From a virus (taxonomy: Duplodnaviria > Heunggongvirae > Uroviricota > Caudoviricetes), in the IMG/VR virus record IMGVR_UViG_3300028327_000833, positions 1 to 34,515 of that record: 34,515 nt of DNA. One strand, written 5' to 3'. Position numbers and translations under genes: made by a program. Below, one piece after another: positions 2,374-32,684 of the stretch (position 1 is its first letter; the number at the start of each line of letters is the position of its first letter). Under the pieces are notes generated by a model. It saw nothing but the letters and a program-made list of their open reading frames with translations, did not search any database and was not told where the DNA came from.

Positions 2374-2488
2374 TGCGGCCTCCTTATCTATTTGTTCAAC
2401 CCTACACATGCGGTAGAAACATTCGCTTCAGCCGCTTCCTTAGCTCTCTGCTTTTTTCAACCCCGCGCAGTCGGCGGAAGCTGCCCGT

Positions 2489-2502
2489 CTACTACAGTAC
2501 GC
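2489..2502 (-). promoter_or_regulatory. GCGTACTGTAGTAG motif copy 1 (upstream of antirepressor)
   Basis: Exact 14-mer found 5 times, each co-oriented with downstream genes. Confidence 0.6.
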
Positions 2503-3184
2503 TTCCCGTCTTCAAAATTTCTTCCCCCGCCCCCCGCCGGCTCCGCGGCGCGTCTTCAACTCCGTAAGCTCCGCGCGTCCGCGCGCCCTCCGCGGACGGC
2601 TCCGCCGCCCTCTCCGCCCGAAACCGTTATCCTTTCAGGATAATCCGCCTTCCGGCTCCGCGGCCCGATCCGCCGTCCGTACGCGGCTTCCGCCGCCCCG
2701 CGGACTCCGCGTCCGCCGAAAACCCGCAAAAAATCCGCAAGGTGCGCGCAAGGGGTCTCGCAAGAAGCCGTTTATAATATATAGGCGCGTCCGTCTATAG
2801 CGGCGCGGACTGATTTTCCGGAACAACCGGACGGTTTCGCGAGGGGCGCTCGGGGATCTCGGACGGCGGTTTCGAGGCGGTTTCGCCGCAAACGCAATCC
2901 AGAGGCGTCCCAGGCGCGCCGGACTGTTCGGGCGGGACTTTGGTCGACGCGGGCGCCGGAATCGTCCCGGTGAACGTCTGGTGCGTTCTGGCGGGGCGTC
3001 GCCGTAAACCCGCCGGGTCTGATTTCTGAATTCGGGGTCGGATTCGGGGGAAAAAATTTCTGTGAGCTACTATAGGACTCAAAGAGTATTTAAGCGTCTT
3101 CTTCAGCCGTCCGCGCGCCCGTCAAGGGCGCGTGCAAGCGTCCCCCCTCATACTCCCCCAGTATAGAAATAATATATTATTATT

Positions 3185-3415
3185 AAAGTCAAAAGAATTA
3201 GAAGACTAACTAGAGAATAAAAGATTTATATAATATAAACAAGAATTCTGCAAGAAGACTGCAAGAAGACTGTTATATATTATTATAATTATTATTATTA
3301 AGCCGTATAAAAGAATACTCTTAGTAATTCTGCGGAGATATAATAATATTATAAGGGCTTAAACAGATAAAGTCAAAAGAATTAGAAGATTAACTAGAGA
3401 ATAAAAGATTTATAT
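3185..3415 (+). repeat. 47-bp direct repeat (3185-3231, 3369-3415; 1 mismatch)
   Basis: AAAGTCAAAAGAATTAGAAGA(C/T)TAACTAGAGAATAAAAGATTTATAT. Confidence 0.9.
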
Positions 3416-3419
3416 TATT

Positions 3420-3482
3420 AAAGTCAAAACAGCCGAATATAATAATACAGACTTGCGTCTGTATATACACTAAAGAGATAAG
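3420..3482. repeat. Hairpin element copy A (stem ATACAGAC, loop TTGC)
   Basis: AAAGTCAAAAC-N14-ATACAGAC TTGC GTCTGTAT-N6-TAAAGAGATAAG. Confidence 0.85.
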
Positions 3483-3643
3483 TCAAAAGAAACGTACTAG
3501 GTATTCGCCGTATATTATAATAATATTATAAAAATTATCAATAATTATTCTCCGAAATATTCCTGATATATTCCGCGGAGAATTATTAATGCTGCGGCGA
3601 ACCGGAAAATTTTACGGATTTTACAGCCGCGTAAAAAAAACTA

Positions 3644-4043
3644 TTGACAAAACGCTTACGGTATTTAACTTACGGAATTTATAATCTCGAAATTCTGAAA
3701 ATTCCGAAAACCGACGTTAAAGTCAAAGTCAAAGTCGAAACATCCGGCAGAAACAGCCCGTGCTTGCGCACGGGCTTACGCTAAGGAAAAAGTCAAAGTC
3801 AAAAGCTGGAATCCGCCGCATATTATTATTATTATTAATAATAATGCCTGGAATTCGCGGTATGCCGGTAATCTCAAGAAATTATCCGTTATGCTTCGAA
3901 TTCCGAAAAATGCGGACGCTTCTTGAATTCCCGGAATGCCGCCTTCCGCAAAAAAAAATCGAATTTACAGCCTGTATGAAAAAAAAATAAAAATATGCCG
4001 TTGACAAAACGCTTACGGTATTTAACTTACGGAATTTATAATC
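3644..4043 (+). promoter_or_regulatory. Identical 43-bp repeat (3644-3686, 4001-4043) starting with TTGACA; putative sigma70-type promoters
   Basis: TTGACAAAACGCTTACGGTATTTAACTTACGGAATTTATAATC twice; TAACTT lies 16 bp after TTGACA. Repeat is certain, promoter role inferred. Confidence 0.65.
3731..3792. repeat. Hairpin element copy B (stem GCCCGTGC, loop TTGC)
   Basis: AAAGTCGAAAC-N14-GCCCGTGC TTGC GCACGGGC-N6-TAAGGAAAAAG. Confidence 0.85.
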
Positions 4044-4125
4044 CAGAACAACGCCGAAAAAGCCGAAACCGCGCGGAATCCCGAAAACTCCCGAAAACCG
4101 TCGATATGTAAAATATATAAAAGTC

Positions 4126-4187
4126 AAAGTCAAAACACCCGACACATATAGTTCGCGCTTGCGCGCGAACAAACATTAAGGAAAAAG
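4126..4187. repeat. Hairpin element copy C (stem GTTCGCGC, loop TTGC)
   Basis: AAAGTCAAAAC-N14-GTTCGCGC TTGC GCGCGAAC-N6-TAAGGAAAAAG. Confidence 0.85.
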
Positions 4188-4288
4188 CCGAATTCTGGAA
4201 TTCTCCGAAAAACGTCCCCGAATCCGAAACCCCGAAATTAAACTTTTTAAAATAAATTAAAAACCCCTATAAAAAAGTCAAACAAACG

Positions 4289-4302
4289 GCGTACTGTAGT
4301 AG
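4289..4302 (+). promoter_or_regulatory. GCGTACTGTAGTAG motif copy 2
   Basis: Exact copy ~105 bp upstream of the first plus-strand gene. Confidence 0.6.
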
Positions 4303-4407
4303 AGGGCGGAACTTGCCGGGTTTAAACCCATGCCGTAACAAACGCTTTCAAAAACGGCGCAATACACGCTGACCGAAGATAACCGAAACTGAAAAGGAAA
4401 CCTTAAA

Positions 4408-8359: not shown

Positions 8360-9588
8360 GTTTTATTATCAAATATTGTTTTTTGTTATCAAAGGTGTTA
8401 TCTTTGAGTTATGAAACTATACAGTTATGTTAAAATTCTTAGAGTCTCTTAAAGGAACTTGAAAAATGAAGTTCAACAGAAGCGTCAAATGCCACTTCTC
8501 GAAGTGGATAACCGGAAGCAAGTCCGGCCGTATAAAAGACTTGCTTTCTGAATATGACGCCGTCGCGTCTTCCGCTATAGACGGTATAAAAAACCGTATA
8601 GAAGACGGTGCCTCTAAATTCAATGTCCTTAAAAATTACAAAGTACCGGAAACGTGGCTGACAGCTAGAGCGAAACAAGTCGTTTTAGCCGAAACCTACG
8701 GCATGGTAGACGGCCAGATTAAAAGTTGCAAAGAGTTAAAACAGCCGTATACGAAACCTAAACACTGCAAAACAAGGGCCGTTTTGTCTTGCAATTTAGT
8801 GTCTATAAATCTTAACCCTGATTTAGAAGCGTTCGACCTTTTAGTGGAGTTAAAATGTTTCGACAGCAGAAGGAAAGCGGTTAAAATAGCGATACCCTTG
8901 AAAAAGAACCGCTGTTTTGAAAAATGGAACACTAAAGGCAAACTTTCAAGTTCCGTTATTTTAACAGACAAATATATGCAGTTTTCTTTTGAAGCTGACG
9001 TCCCTAAGAAAACGGAAGGCAGCATTATAGGCTTAGACCCCGGAGCCACGAACCTTTTAACCTCTGACGAGGGCGTTGTTTACGGCGACCTGATAAAGCC
9101 GCTTTTACAGAAACTTAAACGTAAAAAACGCAACTCAAGGTCGTGGAAGAAATGTAAAAAAGAGATTAAATATTACATTTCTAAAACATGTAAAGAGTTG
9201 CCTTTTAAAGAAACTAAATTAATCTGTATTGAAAATAACAAGGATATTAAAAGGAACAGCAAAGTTAAAGGGCGCTTAACTAAAAATATGCGTTCAGTTC
9301 TCGACGGCTGGACAAGCGGGTTGCTGGATAGCAGGGTAGAAATGCTTGCCGAAGAAAACGGTGTTTCCTTACGGCGGGTACCTGCTTTCCACAACTCTAC
9401 TACTTGTCCGGTCTGCGGTCACGTTGAGAAGGGGAACCGGTTAAGTCAAGAGGCGTTCAGGTGTCTGTCTTGTGACTATGCAGGCAAAGCCGATACGGTC
9501 GGCGCTTTAAACGTCCTTGGCCGTTTCTCCCTCGGAAAATATGGTTCCGGGTTCAAAACCGAGTTTGTTAAAAAACATGCAGGTTATT
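8346..9588 (+). mobile_element. Non-autonomous tnpB-only IS (IS200/IS605 or IS607 superfamily); ends approximate
   Basis: Abrupt AT-rich segment containing tnpB, no tnpA; left-end direct repeats TTTTRTTATCAAA at 8361 and 8381. Confidence 0.75.
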
Positions 9589-9605
9589 ACGCCTGCAAGA
9601 TTTGA
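8466..9605 (+). CDS. tnpB: TnpB RNA-guided endonuclease
   Basis: RuvC-I IIGLDPG, RuvC-II ICIEN, Zn finger CPVCGH..FRCLSCDY, RuvC-III ADTVGALNV; D-E-D intact. Confidence 0.9.
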   Translation: MKFNRSVKCHFSKWITGSKSGRIKDLLSEYDAVASSAIDGIKNRIEDGASKFNVLKNYKVPETWLTARAKQVVLAETYGMVDGQIKSCKELKQPYTKPKHCKTRAVLSCNLVSINLNPDLEAFDLLVELKCFDSRRKAVKIAIPLKKNRCFEKWNTKGKLSSSVILTDKYMQFSFEADVPKKTEGSIIGLDPGATNLLTSDEGVVYGDLIKPLLQKLKRKKRNSRSWKKCKKEIKYYISKTCKELPFKETKLICIENNKDIKRNSKVKGRLTKNMRSVLDGWTSGLLDSRVEMLAEENGVSLRRVPAFHNSTTCPVCGHVEKGNRLSQEAFRCLSCDYAGKADTVGALNVLGRFSLGKYGSGFKTEFVKKHAGYYACKI

Positions 9606-13834: not shown

Positions 13835-13848
13835 GCGTACTGTAGTAG
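13835..13848 (+). promoter_or_regulatory. GCGTACTGTAGTAG motif copy 3
   Basis: 49 bp upstream of ATG 13898 at the head of the replication block. Confidence 0.6.
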
Positions 13849-25905: not shown

Positions 25906-28900
25906 ATGTTGTTGCTTGACGAACTTGCTTACGAAGTTGTTCCCTGCGCGGGGATGGCGGCGGCTTTGCGGGCGTTCCCCGCAGGCGATTGCGCTTTCGA
26001 CTACGAAACATGGAATTCCCGCGACGGCGAACTCGCCAAAGAACCCTGGGACGAAGACACGCACCCGTTCATGTTTTCGGTATGCTCTCTCGACAACCCT
26101 GAGAACACCGTAAAGGTTTTTCTCGCCGACCGCGTAGGCCCCGCCGAGAAAGCGGCGCTGGACAAGTTTTTGTCGTCCCGCCGCGTATGGTCGTTCAACT
26201 GCAAATTTGAAGGCGGCATCACCTCCAAAATGCTCGGCAGGTTCATTTTTTTCGACGACATTCAGTGCTTTTACAAAATCGACGGGCGGTTCATTAACGG
26301 CCTGTCGCTGAAAAAGGGAACGTCGCAGCTTATGAACGTGCCGGAGTGGTCGGAAGCCACTTGGGAAACCTACGAGGCGCTTAAAGAGATCGTCGCGCGA
26401 TTGCAGGGGACTTGGGCCAAGAAACGCAAGACGGCGGATCTCTTGGCCGCGTTTCTCGACGGCGACGTCAGACGGGCGTACCGAATAATTGAAAGCAGAC
26501 TCGACGCGAAGGTCGTGATGTCGAAGAAAGACGCCGAATTCTACGACTTGCTGGTCAGGGTCAAACCGTATATGACGCCGCGACTGGTTTTAGACGCGCT
26601 GGTCGGCTCTCGGTTCGACCCCGCAAAAATAACCTTGCGGAACGTTACGCCCGAAATCGTGGAACGCTACGCCGCATACGACGCCTACGCCACGGCGTGC
26701 TGTTACGACAAACTGCATAGGGATTGCGAGGCGCAGTACGAATACTACATCAAGCAGTCGCATCTCGCGATGCTGATGGAGGCTTACGGCATGACCCGCG
26801 ACATGAAACGCGAGGCCGAGCTGGAAGAGCACTATAAAAGCCAAATTCTAAGTTACATGAAAAAGCTGCTGAAAATCAAACAGTTTTCGGACATGCTCAA
26901 AATCGACTACGCGGTTAAAGAGATCAATCCGGCGACCGGCCGTCTGAAGCAGATGCCGTATAGCAAGATCGGGCTGGACATCGAAGACGACATTAAAATA
27001 GACAGCGCGGTCGATTATACGGAGCTGAAAGAAAACTATTATAATTACGCGGCTACGCACGAAGACACCGTGAGGCTGTTTTACGACGCTCTGTTTTCGT
27101 CGGAAAAGGCGCAGTCCGCGATTATGGCGTACCATATTAAAAAAACGGCCGTCCAAGTTGAGGGTTTCACAGAGACCGTCAACGGGCAGGAGATGCACCG
27201 CGCAAGGAACATGACTTACGAAACGGACAGCGCTTTCGTAGCCGAAATTATAGCGCACATAGAGAACCGACAGGGAGAGGCTAAGGCCGCCTTAGACGCG
27301 AAAACCGGCAATAGCCGGCTTTCGTATGTAAAATCCAATTTAGACAAGCTCGGCCTTTCGGAAGACGATCCGCTTCTGCTTGAGTATAAAAAGTGGGATA
27401 AGATGCTGTTCAGTATGCAGAAAACCCTGGAAGACGCTTATGCGATGAAAGTGGCCCCTGCGGGCGAAGCTACTAAGAAAGAGGACAAAAACGCCACGAC
27501 CGAAGACGTCAGGCTGTCGCTGAGGAAGGAGAACCTGGAAATACTGTACAGCGCCCTCAGCGAATGCGCGGGCATGCAGGCGGACGTCCCGTGGGAAGAG
27601 ATGGAGTGGGAGATGCAGCTCGTGTTCTGCTGCAAACTGCTCAAGAAGTTAGACAAGGCTCTCAATTCGTACATACAGGGTAAAGTCGGGCGCGAAAGGG
27701 TGCGCCGATGTTCTTTCGGAAATAATCTGCTGGAAGTGCCCATACGGACTCTTAGCGGACAGAACCATCTATTTCAGACTTCGTTCAACGACTGTTCGGC
27801 GGATACTAAACGCTGGCGAAGCCCGATTCACGCGATCCCTCGCGGGTGCGAATTGAGCGAGATGATCGTGCCGAGGCTGATGGACTCGATTTTAGTGCAT
27901 TACGACTACTGCTGGCATAAAGATACGAGAATAAAGCTCATTAACGGGGTTACGCGGACGATTGAAGAGTTATATAATCAGAGACCGAGTGCAACAACGC
28001 ACTCCTATGATCCGTGGAGTAAGTTGTTCTGTGTAGGGACAATTAAAGAGGTAAGGAAAGTCAGAATAGAGCCGAAACTGTTAGAACTAACGCTCGATAC
28101 TGGGTTTACGCTGTGTTTAACGCCTGAGCATAATTTGTATAAAAGCGGTTACGTAAAGACACCGGCGTCTGACTTGAAGGTCGGTGATAGTCTGTTCTCA
28201 GGGTACGTTGCGTCCGACGCTAAAATCACAGCAATACGCGAAATCCCTTATTATGACTGGGTGTATACAATCGAGATTGTAGAACAGCACCATAACTATT
28301 TTGTGGCGGCTTCTGATGACACGTCCGCTGTAGTCCTATCCTCGAACTCGCAATCTGAAGTCCGCGTGATAGCCGCGTTGGCGCAAGAGCAAGAGCTGTT
28401 GAAGATGTTCAGAGACAATCCGAAGGCCGACGTTCATAGGCTGATGGCTTCCCGCGTGTGGAACAAGAAACCCGAAGAGGTCAGCGGCGAGGAACGCCGC
28501 GCGTCTAAGGGTATGGTGTTCGGCACTTTGTACGGCATGTCGCTGGAGTCTACGGCCGCAGGATACTTTGACTCCAATATCACGGTCGCGCGGGACGTCC
28601 GCGACAAATTTTTCGCGACCTACCCGAAGATCCTGCCTTGGTGCGAAGCGCAGCATAAGCAGATCGAGAAGTATAAATACGTAAACACGATATTCGGCGA
28701 TAAGATTTGGATCGAAGCCAAGAGTCGCGGCGAACTGCATCGCAGGAGCCAGAACTATCCCGTACAGTCGTCGTCTTCGTCGATCGCGGGTTACGGGATA
28801 TGGAACGTTTGGGAGCATTGCCGAAATGAAAAGATTGAGGCTATTCCGCAGTGCTTCATCCACGACTCGTCGGATTGGGACGTCAAACTTTCGCATTTAA

Positions 28901-29256
28901 TAAGATTTATTAAAGCCGTCAACAAGTGCGCCGTAGACGACTTGGCGAAACAATTCGGCATACCTATGAAGATCGACTTTGAAATCGGGGTCAATTTGAA
29001 TTTTACGATGCACGTCGAAAACCCGGAATTTGCGGACGGCGGGGTACGGTTCGAGTTTAAGTGTCCCGAAGTGTTCTACCGGCCGCTGATGGAGCGGCTG
29101 TCCTCGGCTTACGCTGTTGAAGTCGAAATCGCAAAAGAAGAAGAAGAAATCGAGTCCTGGAAGAGTCTTTTCGTCACTAAACGCCCGTATTCGATGTATA
29201 TTAACAGGCCGATAAAATTATTTTCGGGAGCTATTGCATTAACGCGGAAGTTTTAG
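25906..29256 (+). CDS. Phage family A DNA polymerase with 3'-5' exonuclease, intein-containing
   Basis: ExoI FDYET, ExoII FNCKFE, ExoIII YAAYDA; motif A HYDY|SQSEVR, motif B RRASKGMVFGTLYG, motif C FIHDS. Confidence 0.93.
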   Translation: MLLLDELAYEVVPCAGMAAALRAFPAGDCAFDYETWNSRDGELAKEPWDEDTHPFMFSVCSLDNPENTVKVFLADRVGPAEKAALDKFLSSRRVWSFNCKFEGGITSKMLGRFIFFDDIQCFYKIDGRFINGLSLKKGTSQLMNVPEWSEATWETYEALKEIVARLQGTWAKKRKTADLLAAFLDGDVRRAYRIIESRLDAKVVMSKKDAEFYDLLVRVKPYMTPRLVLDALVGSRFDPAKITLRNVTPEIVERYAAYDAYATACCYDKLHRDCEAQYEYYIKQSHLAMLMEAYGMTRDMKREAELEEHYKSQILSYMKKLLKIKQFSDMLKIDYAVKEINPATGRLKQMPYSKIGLDIEDDIKIDSAVDYTELKENYYNYAATHEDTVRLFYDALFSSEKAQSAIMAYHIKKTAVQVEGFTETVNGQEMHRARNMTYETDSAFVAEIIAHIENRQGEAKAALDAKTGNSRLSYVKSNLDKLGLSEDDPLLLEYKKWDKMLFSMQKTLEDAYAMKVAPAGEATKKEDKNATTEDVRLSLRKENLEILYSALSECAGMQADVPWEEMEWEMQLVFCCKLLKKLDKALNSYIQGKVGRERVRRCSFGNNLLEVPIRTLSGQNHLFQTSFNDCSADTKRWRSPIHAIPRGCELSEMIVPRLMDSILVHYDYCWHKDTRIKLINGVTRTIEELYNQRPSATTHSYDPWSKLFCVGTIKEVRKVRIEPKLLELTLDTGFTLCLTPEHNLYKSGYVKTPASDLKVGDSLFSGYVASDAKITAIREIPYYDWVYTIEIVEQHHNYFVAASDDTSAVVLSSNSQSEVRVIAALAQEQELLKMFRDNPKADVHRLMASRVWNKKPEEVSGEERRASKGMVFGTLYGMSLESTAAGYFDSNITVARDVRDKFFATYPKILPWCEAQHKQIEKYKYVNTIFGDKIWIEAKSRGELHRRSQNYPVQSSSSSIAGYGIWNVWEHCRNEKIEAIPQCFIHDSSDWDVKLSHLIRFIKAVNKCAVDDLAKQFGIPMKIDFEIGVNLNFTMHVENPEFADGGVRFEFKCPEVFYRPLMERLSSAYAVEVEIAKEEEEIESWKSLFVTKRPYSMYINRPIKLFSGAIALTRKF
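27910..28347 (+). mobile_element. 146-aa mini-intein in polymerase motif A
   Basis: Cys1 (CWHKDT), block B TPEH, block F VYTIEI..HNYFV, ends SSN before Ser+1; no endonuclease domain. Confidence 0.9.
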
Positions 29257-31724: not shown

Positions 31725-32684
31725 ATGGCCCCACGTGTTCCCAAAACCCTCGCCTTCCTTGAAGACGCCGGCGAGCTGCGCAAAGCCTTCGACACCGCCG
31801 AAGGCGCGGCCTACTACTGTCCTTTTTGCTACGAAAAAGAGAAGAAGTATAACGTCCCGTGGCCGAAGCCGGATACGACGGGCAAACTTTTCATAAACGT
31901 CTCTAAAAACAAGGGGTATTGCTTTAGGTGCAACACAGCCGTAGTCAGTCACGCCGATTATGACAATCTGAAGTCATACATAACCGACTTTCTGAACGAC
32001 GGCGAGGAGCGGGTAGACTTGCAGAATCTCCCGGTAGTCGATTTAAGCGGCGTCCCGCCGGCGTCCAGATTTCAGGAAGCGATAGACTACTTAAAGTCCC
32101 GAAACGCTTTTTTCGACGAACAAAACGCCGACCGCTTAGATTTGCGCTGGGTCGATTCATACAGGACGGTGAATCACTGCATAGACGGCGTCGTAAAACT
32201 GCGCCGTAAAGGCATTATGGTGCCTCTGAAGTACAGGGGCCGGATCCGTTCCTACCAAATCCGCTATATCACGGATTCCAAGAAGTTCAGGTTTCACACG
32301 ATGGAGGGTAAGAGGCTGCTGACGGGCATTTCCGACATTCCCCCGTACTCGCCGATAACCCTGTGCGAAGGATTTTACGACGCCGTCGCGCTCAACTGCA
32401 TGGGCTTCCCGAACCCTGTGGCGATGCTCGGCAAGTCGCCGTCCGCGCTCCAAATCGCCCAACTGCAGGAGATTACGCCGTATCACGTAAACCTATGTCT
32501 TGACGAGCCTGCGCTGAATTACGGGCTTCTGCGCGGATTGCGGCGCAGACTGAAAACTATGGAATCCTACAAATCGTGGAGATTCAAAAATGCGAAGGAT
32601 CCGGAAGATTTTTTGAAAGCCAATCCCGATTATAGGTATAATTTGGATAACGTTAAACTTGTGGCGAAGGATTTAACGGCATGA
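31725..32684 (+). CDS. DNA primase (Zn finger plus TOPRIM)
   Basis: YCPFC..YCFRC; TLCEGFYDAVAL, LCLDE, KDPED. Confidence 0.85.
   Translation: MAPRVPKTLAFLEDAGELRKAFDTAEGAAYYCPFCYEKEKKYNVPWPKPDTTGKLFINVSKNKGYCFRCNTAVVSHADYDNLKSYITDFLNDGEERVDLQNLPVVDLSGVPPASRFQEAIDYLKSRNAFFDEQNADRLDLRWVDSYRTVNHCIDGVVKLRRKGIMVPLKYRGRIRSYQIRYITDSKKFRFHTMEGKRLLTGISDIPPYSPITLCEGFYDAVALNCMGFPNPVAMLGKSPSALQIAQLQEITPYHVNLCLDEPALNYGLLRGLRRRLKTMESYKSWRFKNAKDPEDFLKANPDYRYNLDNVKLVAKDLTA

Follow-up and report, generated by a model that had tools for sequence, protein, structure and literature searches.

Covarying hairpin elements in the control hub of a large phage as candidate single-strand DNA initiation signals

Introduction

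Three short hairpins with one loop and different stems lie close together in a non-coding region of a viral record (IMGVR_UViG_3300028327_000833), and the question they raise is what such structures are for. Signals that act as extruded DNA hairpins are, to our knowledge, rare and have been well studied only in N4 promoters, G4-type origins and the ssi sites of RSF1010, and we know of no cultured phage for the Fibrobacterota, the phylum to which the present locus appears to lead. The window analysed here is a stretch of 34,515 nucleotides from this record, which at 152,642 bp represents 74% of the ~205-kb genome of an uncultured termite-gut phage. Here, we ask whether the hairpins are real structure-dependent elements, on which strand and in which nucleic acid they would act, and how they compare with the hairpin signals already described.

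Results

Three co-oriented elements of 59 nt, written here on the plus strand, occupy 3420-3478 (E1), 3731-3789 (E2) and 4126-4184 (E3), and the consensus that a preliminary description of this DNA had placed at 3420, 3731 and 4126 was found there as written. In E1 a 16-mer, AAAGTCRAAACANCCG (3420-3435), is followed by N8 and an A (3436-3444), the first arm of the stem (3445-3452), a TTGC loop (3453-3456), the second arm (3457-3464), N6 (3465-3470) and the octamer TAAAGAGA (3471-3478). E2 comprises the 16-mer at 3731-3746, a hairpin at 3755-3776 and the octamer TAAGGAAA at 3782-3789, and the latter also closes E3 at 4177-4184, after a 16-mer at 4126-4141 and a hairpin at 4151-4170. All of the stems pair perfectly, as had been reported, but that of E2 is 9 bp long rather than 8 bp; similarly, the 6-nt gap after the stem was correct, but a spacing of 14 nt was not reproduced, the distance from 16-mer to stem being 9 nt (N8 plus A). 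Nor is the loop-closing C all that the stems share, as two C-G pairs are invariant, at positions 4 and 8. Across the whole 152,642-bp record the 16-mer has exact matches at 3420, 3731 and 4126 only, and a scan of the whole record for TTGC/GCAA-loop hairpins with a perfect stem of at least 6 bp returned only 3445-3464, 3755-3776 and 4151-4170. A protein-coding reading of the element region was rejected, there being no credible open reading frame and none called on five independent assemblies.

A diverged relative, L139, whose early proteins are 49-58% identical, carries two of the three elements (E1' and E3'); E2 is absent there together with the repeat block that precedes it. L139 is the single diverged relative found for the first gene of the rightward block, whilst for the antirepressor no close homologue is on record and 189-aa and 921-aa protein seeds identified no relatives in viral contigs. 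A contig of 204,996 bp bears the same first gene. The L139 orthologue of E1 (268-287) shows one compensatory pair, A-T to T-A, and a TTAC loop, and E3' shows one compensatory pair, G-C to A-T. When the three copies and these two orthologues are aligned (n=5), 40 of 40 stem cells are Watson-Crick, with no G-T or G-U pair, and six of the eight stem pairs change on both sides from copy to copy. In 500 shuffles neither the pairing nor the covariation score of the real alignment was reached, and sliding the register drops the pairing to 10-57%. A covariance model, which had been proposed as a check, was built from the five sequences and run on the record and L139; it revealed no sixth copy in either, and stem pairing was retained in the relative. 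Since the hairpin shape and the loop stay constant while the stem sequence differs in each copy, E1-E3 are a real structure-dependent control element without a family name. The earlier view that this structure is under selection is supported by the orthologues, which stay paired through double changes, but templated correction of quasi-palindromes could also yield compensatory changes in the absence of pair-by-pair selection.

In the comparison with L139, conservation is highest in the hairpin and directly beside it, above the average for the surrounding non-coding hub, while hardly any is left in the 5' UTR of the first gene. The best-conserved stretch in the right half of the hub, 4110-4154, overlaps E3, with an identity to L139 of 0.93-0.97 over windows of 30 nt. 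All five copies share an A at positions -1 and -3 ahead of the stem and the dinucleotide AC at +3 and +4 behind it. The outer parts of the original consensus fared less well: L139 lacks the trailing TAARGARA, with TAGGGTAA and TATAGAAA in its place, and the 16-mer is not a flank of the element's own but the 3' end of (AAAGTC)n arrays, the conserved flanks being in part a hexamer repeat that the probable host lineage also has.

The two strands of the hairpin are not equivalent. On the minus strand the loop is of the GNRA/GNNA type with a C-G closing pair in all five copies (GCAA in four, GTAA in one); E1 has a stable C(GCAA)G loop, and the centre of E2, E3 and E3' reads GCGCAAGC. The minus-strand C(GCAA)G noted at the outset is strengthened by this, as the sole loop change in L139 gives GTAA, which is still GNRA, and both GCGCAAGC and GCGTAAGC are listed as ultra-stable (PMC13037366). 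The reported melting temperatures are 72 °C for d(GCGCAAGC) and 71.5 °C for d(GCGTAAGC), compared with 33 °C for d(GCTTTTGC), and such mini-hairpins have been reported at the primase start sites of G4, St-1 and alpha3, at RSF1010 ssiA and at N4 early promoters (PMC13037366). The minus-strand folds are also 1.4-2.6 kcal/mol more stable, with a short outer helix added that includes G-U pairs.

A minus-strand GNRA loop with a C-G closing pair in every copy, and the more stable minus-strand folds, would also suit small RNAs: short leftward transcripts ending in the hairpin as a 3' stem-loop with a GNRA cap, which would serve as terminator or stabiliser. The U/C-rich body of such an RNA (UUUCCUUA) could pair with AAGGA ribosome sites. 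E1, the only element to pass a loose terminator scan, was flagged as terminator-like on the minus strand, and TTGATA-N16-TATAAT lies ~50 nt upstream of it, with a TATAAT at a similar distance in L139. We nevertheless regard this explanation as improbable, given that there is no comparable promoter before E3, that the 16-mer and hexamer array, together the most strongly conserved block, would fall outside such an RNA, that no Rfam family matches, and that the tails are only moderately T-rich, with no run of four T, where the best terminator-like hairpins elsewhere are followed by TTTTT or more. An 8-9-bp, GC-containing stem and a minus-strand C(GNRA)G loop are features held in common with intrinsic terminators that have GNRA tetraloops, but the present elements differ from these in having no T-run, in not ending a transcription unit and in having conserved flanks at a fixed distance. 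Intrinsic terminators were rejected on either strand, given A-rich tails on the plus strand, no four consecutive T in those on the minus strand and no gene ending there; the record's best terminator-like hairpins, by comparison, have TTTTT or more after the stem.

Searches for known families were similarly negative. At the gathering threshold, the only Rfam matches in the window and the remainder of the record were four to tRNAs, three of them clustered at 77-81 kb and the fourth beside the Ro60 gene at 82.1 kb; at E up to 5 there was only noise, including a 16-bit partial match between the E2 hairpin and a Caulobacter sRNA model, so the statement that no named family applies still stands. No match to the hub was found by blastn among 50,697 phage records. 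In viral contigs the 16-mer pattern alone gave chance matches only, none with a hairpin, and stricter patterns of flank plus loop gave zero; in metagenome contigs the flank-plus-loop pattern gave chance matches only, again with no hairpin. A link to TnpB was considered and rejected, since the two-mismatch 16-mer matches inside six tnpB copies come without the hairpin.

The hub in which the elements lie (2410-4407) is the largest and most AT-rich non-coding gap of the record, with a GC-rich left part (~2410-3160) and an AT-rich right part (3160-4407). It divides leftward genes (RepL-like, antirepressor) from a long rightward gene block, the RepL-like gene being 2.5 kb to the left, and is rich in co-oriented direct repeats. 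E1-E3 sit between two divergent, outward-facing, phage-specific promoters: the core CGTACTGTAGTAG at 4290-4302 on the plus strand, at the right bound of the hub, points to the first plus-strand gene (4408), and a twin copy at 2489-2501 on the minus strand points left to the antirepressor gene (1342-2409). This core has 17 copies in the record, each with a ATAAATTT-like box upstream and each aimed along the genes. Given the most AT-rich and largest gap, the gene-strand switch, the GC-skew minimum, the outward promoters and the direct repeats, we infer that the hub may be a replication-origin and early-control region. The cumulative GC-skew minimum, at ~5 kb, coincides with the switch in transcription direction and so cannot count as separate evidence of an origin. 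Neither an initiator protein nor a HUH nuclease was recognised in the vicinity of the hub. In its GC-rich left half, three plus-strand CGCAAG hexamers 11-12 nt apart (2736-2764) make up the record's only cluster of three within 60 nt; this is the same hexamer as the minus-strand loop and closing pair of E1-E3.

Two repeats place promoter-like sequences ahead of the elements. D4, a plus-strand TTAACT-N17-TATTAT/TATAAT block, occurs at 3184-3234 and at 3368-3418, the second copy ending 1 nt ahead of E1. D3, also on the plus strand, carries two CTTACGGNATTTA units within the 30 nt that separate its TTGACA from its TATAAT, and its copies at 3633-3691 and 3990-4048 lie upstream of E2 and E3, respectively; it is this block that is missing with E2 from L139. 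A leftward sigma-70-like promoter is found at 3348-3376 on the minus strand (TTGACT-N17-TATAAT, 11 of 12 matches), its -35 hexamer being the complement of the AAAGTCAA box in the second copy of D4; by our own reading of the alignment, L139 retains TTGACT-N17-TAATAT with a diverged spacer. Assembled termite-gut contigs of the same phage contain no sequence variants and break at the D3 repeats, loose contig ends occur at 4234 and 4424, and depth differs between contigs.

Such an arrangement raises the possibility, which we consider rather unlikely, that D4 and D3 are tandem host-type early promoters of a plus-strand leader RNA. Here (AAAGUC)n, the hairpin and an SD-like UAAGGAAA without a start codon would form a protein or ribosome site that serves to bind, process, stabilise or antiterminate early transcripts entering the genes from 4408. 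The position of the elements counts against a DNA reading, as all five, three in this phage and two in L139, have a conserved plus-strand promoter-like block just upstream, for which an RNA leader would be the simpler explanation. D4 is nearly identical in L139 despite the 49-58% protein identity, its TTAACT-N17-TATAAT/TATTAT being almost unchanged between the lineages; moreover, the elements are co-oriented with the downstream genes, the plus strand is A-rich, as a coding sense strand would be, and AAGGA-type ribosome sites are in use in this phage. The leader RNA is less easily reconciled with the plus-strand loops, UUGC and UUAC, which fit no single stable tetraloop class whereas their complement is always GNRA, with the absence of any G-U pair in 40 cells, and with the loss of the SD-like octamer in the orthologues. 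The hairpins would also be separated by 18-70 nt from the predicted 5' ends, in our judgement too far for a 5'-terminal stabiliser, the 30-nt TTGACA-TATAAT spacing of D3 corresponds to no standard promoter, and the first gene already has a phage-type promoter at 4290. A lambda-type nut site was rejected, as the loop downstream of D3 and D4 is UUGC/UUAC and the GNRA loop is on the opposite strand.

The hexamer arrays connect this region to a possible host. An (AAAGTC)3 array (3719-3736, plus strand; complement TTGACT) runs into E2, further plus-strand AAAGTC units are found at 3185, 3369, 3420, 3480, 3789-3800, 4120-4131 and 4274, and E1, E2 and E3 are preceded by n = 1, 3 and 2 units, with 5 ahead of E3' in L139. 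Ten of the record's 13 plus-strand AAAGTCAAA copies fall within 3185-4274. Among termite-gut Fibrobacterota genomes, the (AAAGTC)n 12-mer is present in 287, 32, 23, 10 and 10 copies in five and at background in the other ~76; the genomes with 287 and 32 copies are Chitinispirillales MAGs, and the host arrays adjoin hairpins inside composite palindromic repeats. On the basis of this repeat, common to the phage and the Chitinispirillales MAGs, termite-gut Fibrobacterota (Chitinispirillales MAGs) are the probable hosts. A prophage in the candidate host MAGs was ruled out, the 14-mer promoter of the phage being missing from them.

The same sharing could mean that E1-E3 are themselves dispersed host-type repeats, REP/BIME- or MITE-like, which landed in or were copied into the hub and have at most an architectural role, with templated correction of quasi-palindromes keeping the stems perfect. 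(AAAGTC)n next to hairpins is indeed abundant in a few termite-gut Fibrobacterota genomes, and the presence of the D3-E2 unit here but not in L139 is as expected for insertion or duplication. There is likeness to REP/BIME units and MITEs in the palindromic units with short conserved motifs and in the hexamer array shared with dispersed repeats of the host clade. We nonetheless find this origin very doubtful: the covariance model detected no full element in three candidate host MAGs (best E 0.8), the elements are confined to the hub in a single orientation, and conservation between the lineages is higher in the hairpin region than in the hub on average. Membership of the REP, BIME or MITE classes was rejected because the whole unit is not dispersed, with three clustered copies in the phage and none in those three MAGs.

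Discussion

One system that resembles E1-E3 in layout is that of the N4 vRNAP promoters P1-P3, which likewise form three co-oriented copies before the first genes, have a stable loop on one strand, conserve loop and flanks while stem bases vary but stay paired, and for which supercoil extrusion is the expected trigger (PMC4496689). The inverted repeat, GC-rich centre, stems conserved only as pairs and stable, purine-type, G...A-closed loop on the would-be template strand are present in five of five copies here, in line with N4 (PMC4496689). If these were N4-type promoters, the extruded hairpin of the minus (template) strand would be bound by an RNA polymerase able to read it, one that either is not recognisable by sequence or has its gene in the quarter of the genome not covered here, and rightward early transcripts would start a few bases past the stem. 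This appears highly unlikely, as the geometry differs (stem 8-9 bp and loop 4 nt here versus 5-7 bp and 3 nt; PMC4496689) and, whereas N4 conserves -17 to +1, the main conserved block here precedes the hairpin instead of separating it from the start site, with the downstream octamer lost in L139. There is no match to PF00940 (T7-like RNA polymerase) in the available 74% of the genome, in a search that was equally silent in every control genome, and the longest open reading frame is no more than 1268 aa in 152.6 kb. Unlike N4, this phage carries a sigma-70-family gene, which together with the 17 sigma-type promoters points to use of the host core enzyme.

A second comparison is with the ssi and primase hairpins of G4, St-1 and alpha3 and with RSF1010 ssiA and ssiB, which are read by RepB'. 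In these too a stable, GCGNNAGC-type capped hairpin is formed on one strand with short flanks at a fixed distance in an origin-like non-coding region, and the minus-strand centre GCGCAAGC of E2, E3 and E3', with its fixed-distance flanks, corresponds to the GCGNNAGC- or CCGAAGG-type mini-hairpin that these signals have on the template strand. The phage has a DNA primase gene (31725-32684; phrog_47, E 4e-13) and also encodes a helicase (35431-36891 of the record) and a family-A DNA polymerase. The differences are considerable: three tandem copies on the same strand compared with one copy or an opposed pair, a dsDNA phage of ~205 kb compared with ssDNA phages or a small plasmid, and no sequence similarity. 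That all three hairpins are on one strand, when the two ssi sites of RSF1010 are on opposite strands, counts against an ssi role. A looser parallel is the untranslated region in the left terminal repeat of T5, which contains the injection stop signal and is defined by DnaA boxes (bioRxiv 10.1101/866236). It is likewise a long region of a large lytic-type phage, crowded with direct and inverted repeats and palindromes, beside the first-expressed genes and unsettled in function (bioRxiv 10.1101/866236), but no DnaA boxes were recognised in the present hub, the hairpins here covary where the T5 palindromes are conserved in sequence, and the T5 region lies in a terminal repeat.

Weighing these comparisons, the reading that we favour, albeit tentatively, is that E1-E3 are single-stranded DNA initiation signals of the minus strand, set in an origin or early-control hub. 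They would act as cis signals once the duplex opens and the palindrome extrudes, the unwinding being supplied by transcription from the promoter-like blocks or by a factor of the host lineage acting on (AAAGTC)n. The minus strand would then fold into the very stable C(GYAA)G mini-hairpin on an 8-9-bp stem of arbitrary sequence, and an initiation enzyme of the phage or host would recognise the hairpin and its immediate flanks. Of the possible readers, the primase of the phage or a helicase loader would be the likeliest, and the elements would then be ssi-like sites. Pairing by Watson-Crick pairs only is what is predicted for a hairpin that needs to form in DNA on either strand, and the preference for DNA over RNA draws on this lack of wobble pairs and on loop chemistry, in five sequences only. 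RNA readings appear to fit less well, as there is no Rfam match, no T-run tail and no consistent minus-strand promoter before E3.

A more speculative proposal, which we would not put forward as likely, is that promoter block, (AAAGTC)n and mini-hairpin together make up, in a jumbo-size phage, a type of initiation site not described before, in which a hexamer-binding host factor or transcription opens the duplex and the GCGCAAGC hairpin recruits the primase or an unrecognised polymerase. The job of the element is most likely to start DNA or RNA synthesis on an unwound strand.

If the elements were instead RNA hairpins or captured host repeats, the finding would be an ordinary one. The locus offers a cleanly delimited case, combining natural compensatory 'mutants' with a strand-asymmetric core that is a published ultra-stable mini-hairpin, and it yields three short sequences amenable to in vitro tests that need no cultured host, as well as a host prediction for the phage and a map of its control hub. 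Should the initiation reading be true, hairpin-dependent initiation would extend from N4-like podophages, small ssDNA phages and RSF1010 to a large phage of an uncultured phylum, where it would be wired to a host-specific repeat.

Results and discussion

The record derives from a large phage. The window covers the first 34.5 kb of its 152,642 bp, for which completeness is estimated at 74%; the same first gene also occurs on a 204,996-bp contig, and several studies of termite guts have metagenome runs with near-identical DNA. The phage encodes a family-A DNA polymerase with an intein-like insert, an anaerobic ribonucleotide reductase, a fused Mre11/Rad50-like protein, a DNA methylase, a primase and a helicase, as well as a tail-fibre protein and one with BNR repeats that carries a Fibrobacter 'major paralogous' domain. 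Within the polymerase frame (25906-29256, 1116 aa) the intein-splicing-domain match is sub-threshold and falls at residues 679-764, directly before the polymerase domain. There are six copies of tnpB (Cas12f-like TNB domain) in the record, one at 8466-9605 and five more elsewhere.

The largest and most AT-rich non-coding stretch of the record, here called the hub (2410-4407), has leftward genes (RepL-like, antirepressor) on one side and a long rightward block on the other. Within it lie three 59-nt elements, E1 (3420-3478), E2 (3731-3789) and E3 (4126-4184), with exactly the consensus given in the preliminary description: a 16-mer, a hairpin stem closed by a TTGC loop, six further nucleotides and TAARGARA. 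The 16-mer has only these three exact copies in 152.6 kb. Matches with two mismatches sit within tnpB copies, have no hairpin and bear no relation to E1-E3, so a link to tnpB was rejected. A scan of the whole record for TTGC or GCAA loops closed by a perfect stem of 6 bp or more yielded the three hairpins and no others. The stems carry the same base at only two of eight positions and are paired throughout. Only small details had to be amended: the stems share two C-G pairs rather than one, E2 has a ninth pair beyond the uniform eight, and the spacing from 16-mer to stem is 9 nt. The sequence CGCAAG, which is the minus-strand loop plus closing pair, also occurs three times on the plus strand at 2736-2764, spaced by 11-12 nt and just upstream of TTTATAAT, the sole such cluster in the record.

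The product of the first downstream gene (102 aa) has one diverged relative among 5.8 billion proteins, and the 2.2-kb contig that encodes it (L139) spans the AT-rich part of the hub. Early proteins of the two lineages share 49-58% identity. E1 and E3 are kept in L139 (as E1' and E3'), and E2 and one promoter-like D3 block are absent. E1' has one stem pair changed from A-T to T-A and its loop from TTGC to TTAC, and E3' has one pair changed from G-C to A-T. Across the five sequences all 40 stem pairs are Watson-Crick, with six of the eight pair positions differing on both sides; no shuffle reached the observed pairing score, which collapses in shifted registers, and a covariance model found these five copies only. 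Orthologues that kept the flanks and lost the pairing had been named as counter-evidence to structural constraint, and this comparison came out in favour of structure. Perfect stems can also be regenerated by templated correction of quasi-palindromes, so that selection need not lie behind every double change, but the hairpin would then still have to form in vivo.

Conservation is highest right next to the hairpin, in A at -1 and -3, AC at +3 and +4, and the six nucleotides after the stem, which are identical between orthologues. In 30-nt windows across 4110-4154 the lineages are 93-97% identical; for the right half of the hub the figure is 75%, and for the first gene's 5' UTR it is below 45%. 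The trailing TAARGARA, previously counted as part of the conserved element, is not conserved in L139.

The loops bear on which strand is read. On the minus strand all are GNRA loops closed by a C-G pair (four GCAA, one GTAA), the single substitution falling on the one freely variable GNRA position, and no single tetraloop class fits the plus-strand loops UUGC and UUAC. E2, E3 and E3' all have GCGCAAGC at their minus-strand centre. As DNA mini-hairpins, d(GCGCAAGC) melts at 72 C, d(GCGTAAGC) at 71.5 C and d(GCTTTTGC) at 33 C, and such motifs occur at primase start sites of phages G4, St-1 and alpha3, in RSF1010 ssiA and in N4 early promoters (2026 review, PMC13037366). The stems contain no G-T pairs; this agrees with a hairpin of DNA, or in any case gives no indication of RNA. 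Folded as RNA, the minus strand is slightly more stable than the plus, with an extra short outer helix that includes G-U pairs; this helix is AU-rich and its covariation is not clear.

Every element belongs to a module in which a promoter-like block is followed by an (AAAGTC)n array and then the hairpin. The D4 block (TTAACT-N17-TATAAT/TATTAT) stops 1 nt short of E1, and D3 (3633-3691, 3990-4048) sits ahead of E2 and of E3. D4 is among the most strongly conserved sequences of the region, its copies (3184-3234 and 3368-3418; L139:1-50 and 196-243) being almost identical across both lineages. On the plus strand, 10 of the 13 record copies of AAAGTCAAA lie within 3185-4274. A promoter-like block ahead of every element would suit a plus-strand leader RNA, a reading that we consider unlikely given that the loop is on the wrong strand for it, wobble pairs are absent and the SD-like tail is not conserved. 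Less probable again are minus-strand small RNAs: the GNRA loop would suit them and a TATAAT lies upstream of E1, but E3 lacks a promoter and their tails are without the T-runs of the record's best terminator-like hairpins, found elsewhere.

The hub is bounded by two copies of the 13-mer CGTACTGTAGTAG, at 2489-2501 (minus strand) and 4290-4302 (plus strand), and as these face outward the hairpin elements lie between divergent phage-type promoters and outside their transcripts. The 13-mer has 17 copies in the record, each preceded at about 13 nt by a ATAAATTT-like box and always along the gene direction; besides the two at the hub there are three on the plus strand of the window, at 13836, 15925 and 23665, and 12 in the remainder of the record (L125-L130). 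In several cases AGGAGG and a start codon come directly after it, and one copy precedes a tRNA. We take it to be a phage-specific promoter class, and a candidate to read it is the phage sigma-70-family protein encoded at 58.3 kb, where a 313-aa open frame contains a 69-bit sigma-70 region-2 match (L140:1501-1710; record 58254-58463). One of the copies, at record 81752, is near a gene for a Ro60/TROVE and vWA protein (L127:8222-10075; Pfam E 3e-36), just upstream of which is a 47.6-bit match to the Rfam tRNA model (L127:8110-8175); gene and match together span record 82110-84075 and may form a phage Ro60/Y-RNA-like pair. A few nucleotides from the leftward hub promoter, position 2509 or thereabouts is the common first base of two independent assemblies (ENA L135, JGI L137), perhaps because assembly broke at a repeat or because the DNA physically ends there.

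The hexamer array has 1, 3 and 2 units in this phage and 5 in L139. When 185,579 species genomes were scanned, an 18-mer of the array matched several contigs of two termite-gut Chitinispirillales MAGs. The 12-mer AAAGTCAAAGTC occurs 287 times in one of these (2.0 Mb) and 32 times in the other, the reversed control being absent, and is above background in only 5 of 81 sampled Fibrobacterota genomes. One array locus is clearly chromosomal, carrying flhA, flhF, flhG and fliA. The MAG arrays, (AAAGTC)n or (AACGTC)n (contigs L191, L193, L208, L209, L224, L229, L241 and L307-L336), lie within composite palindromic repeats and beside multi-copy elements. Part of the conserved flank of E1-E3 is thus a host-lineage repeat, and this clade is the likely host, as predicted from the common array; the pattern also hints at a lineage-specific host factor that may bind it. 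There is only a slim chance that the elements themselves are captured host-type repeats; neither the full 59-nt element nor the phage 13-mer was found in these MAGs. In one Chitinispirillales MAG (L191, L208, L209, L229, L321, L327, L329) a multi-copy element follows the arrays. It is flanked by conserved TCCCCCTCGCT.C and TCCGCT.CCCCC and has between them a hairpin whose stem is wholly different between copies; it looks like the non-coding RNA or the terminus of a mobile element, and shows covariation of its own.

A role at the DNA level ranks first among the readings, and we hold it tentatively. The AT-rich hub would open and the palindromes extrude; the minus-strand mini-hairpin would withstand melting and, with the bases directly beside it, could show the phage replication proteins where to prime or to load a helicase. 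In favour of this are the loop chemistry, stems held by Watson-Crick pairs only, a location and repeat architecture like those of an origin, and the primase gene; against it count the three copies all lying on the same strand and a GC skew confounded with transcription direction. N4-type hairpin promoters, an improbable reading, share the underlying logic (PMC4496689), but the geometry is unlike that of N4 and no hairpin-reading polymerase was recognised in the available 74% of the genome. E1-E3 may at most work in a manner similar to single-strand initiation signals or N4 promoters, a likeness that cannot assign them to either class.

The covarying hairpin elements are a real and well-supported observation, and no Rfam family or terminator model fits them. 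In the collections searched they are known from two uncultured phage lineages only, in termite-gut-type metagenomes. We rate them as structure-plus-sequence hairpin signals that would be read in single-stranded form; in these general terms the preliminary interpretation was sound. They are a clean feature, amenable to in vitro testing, for which the conceptual precedents are close.
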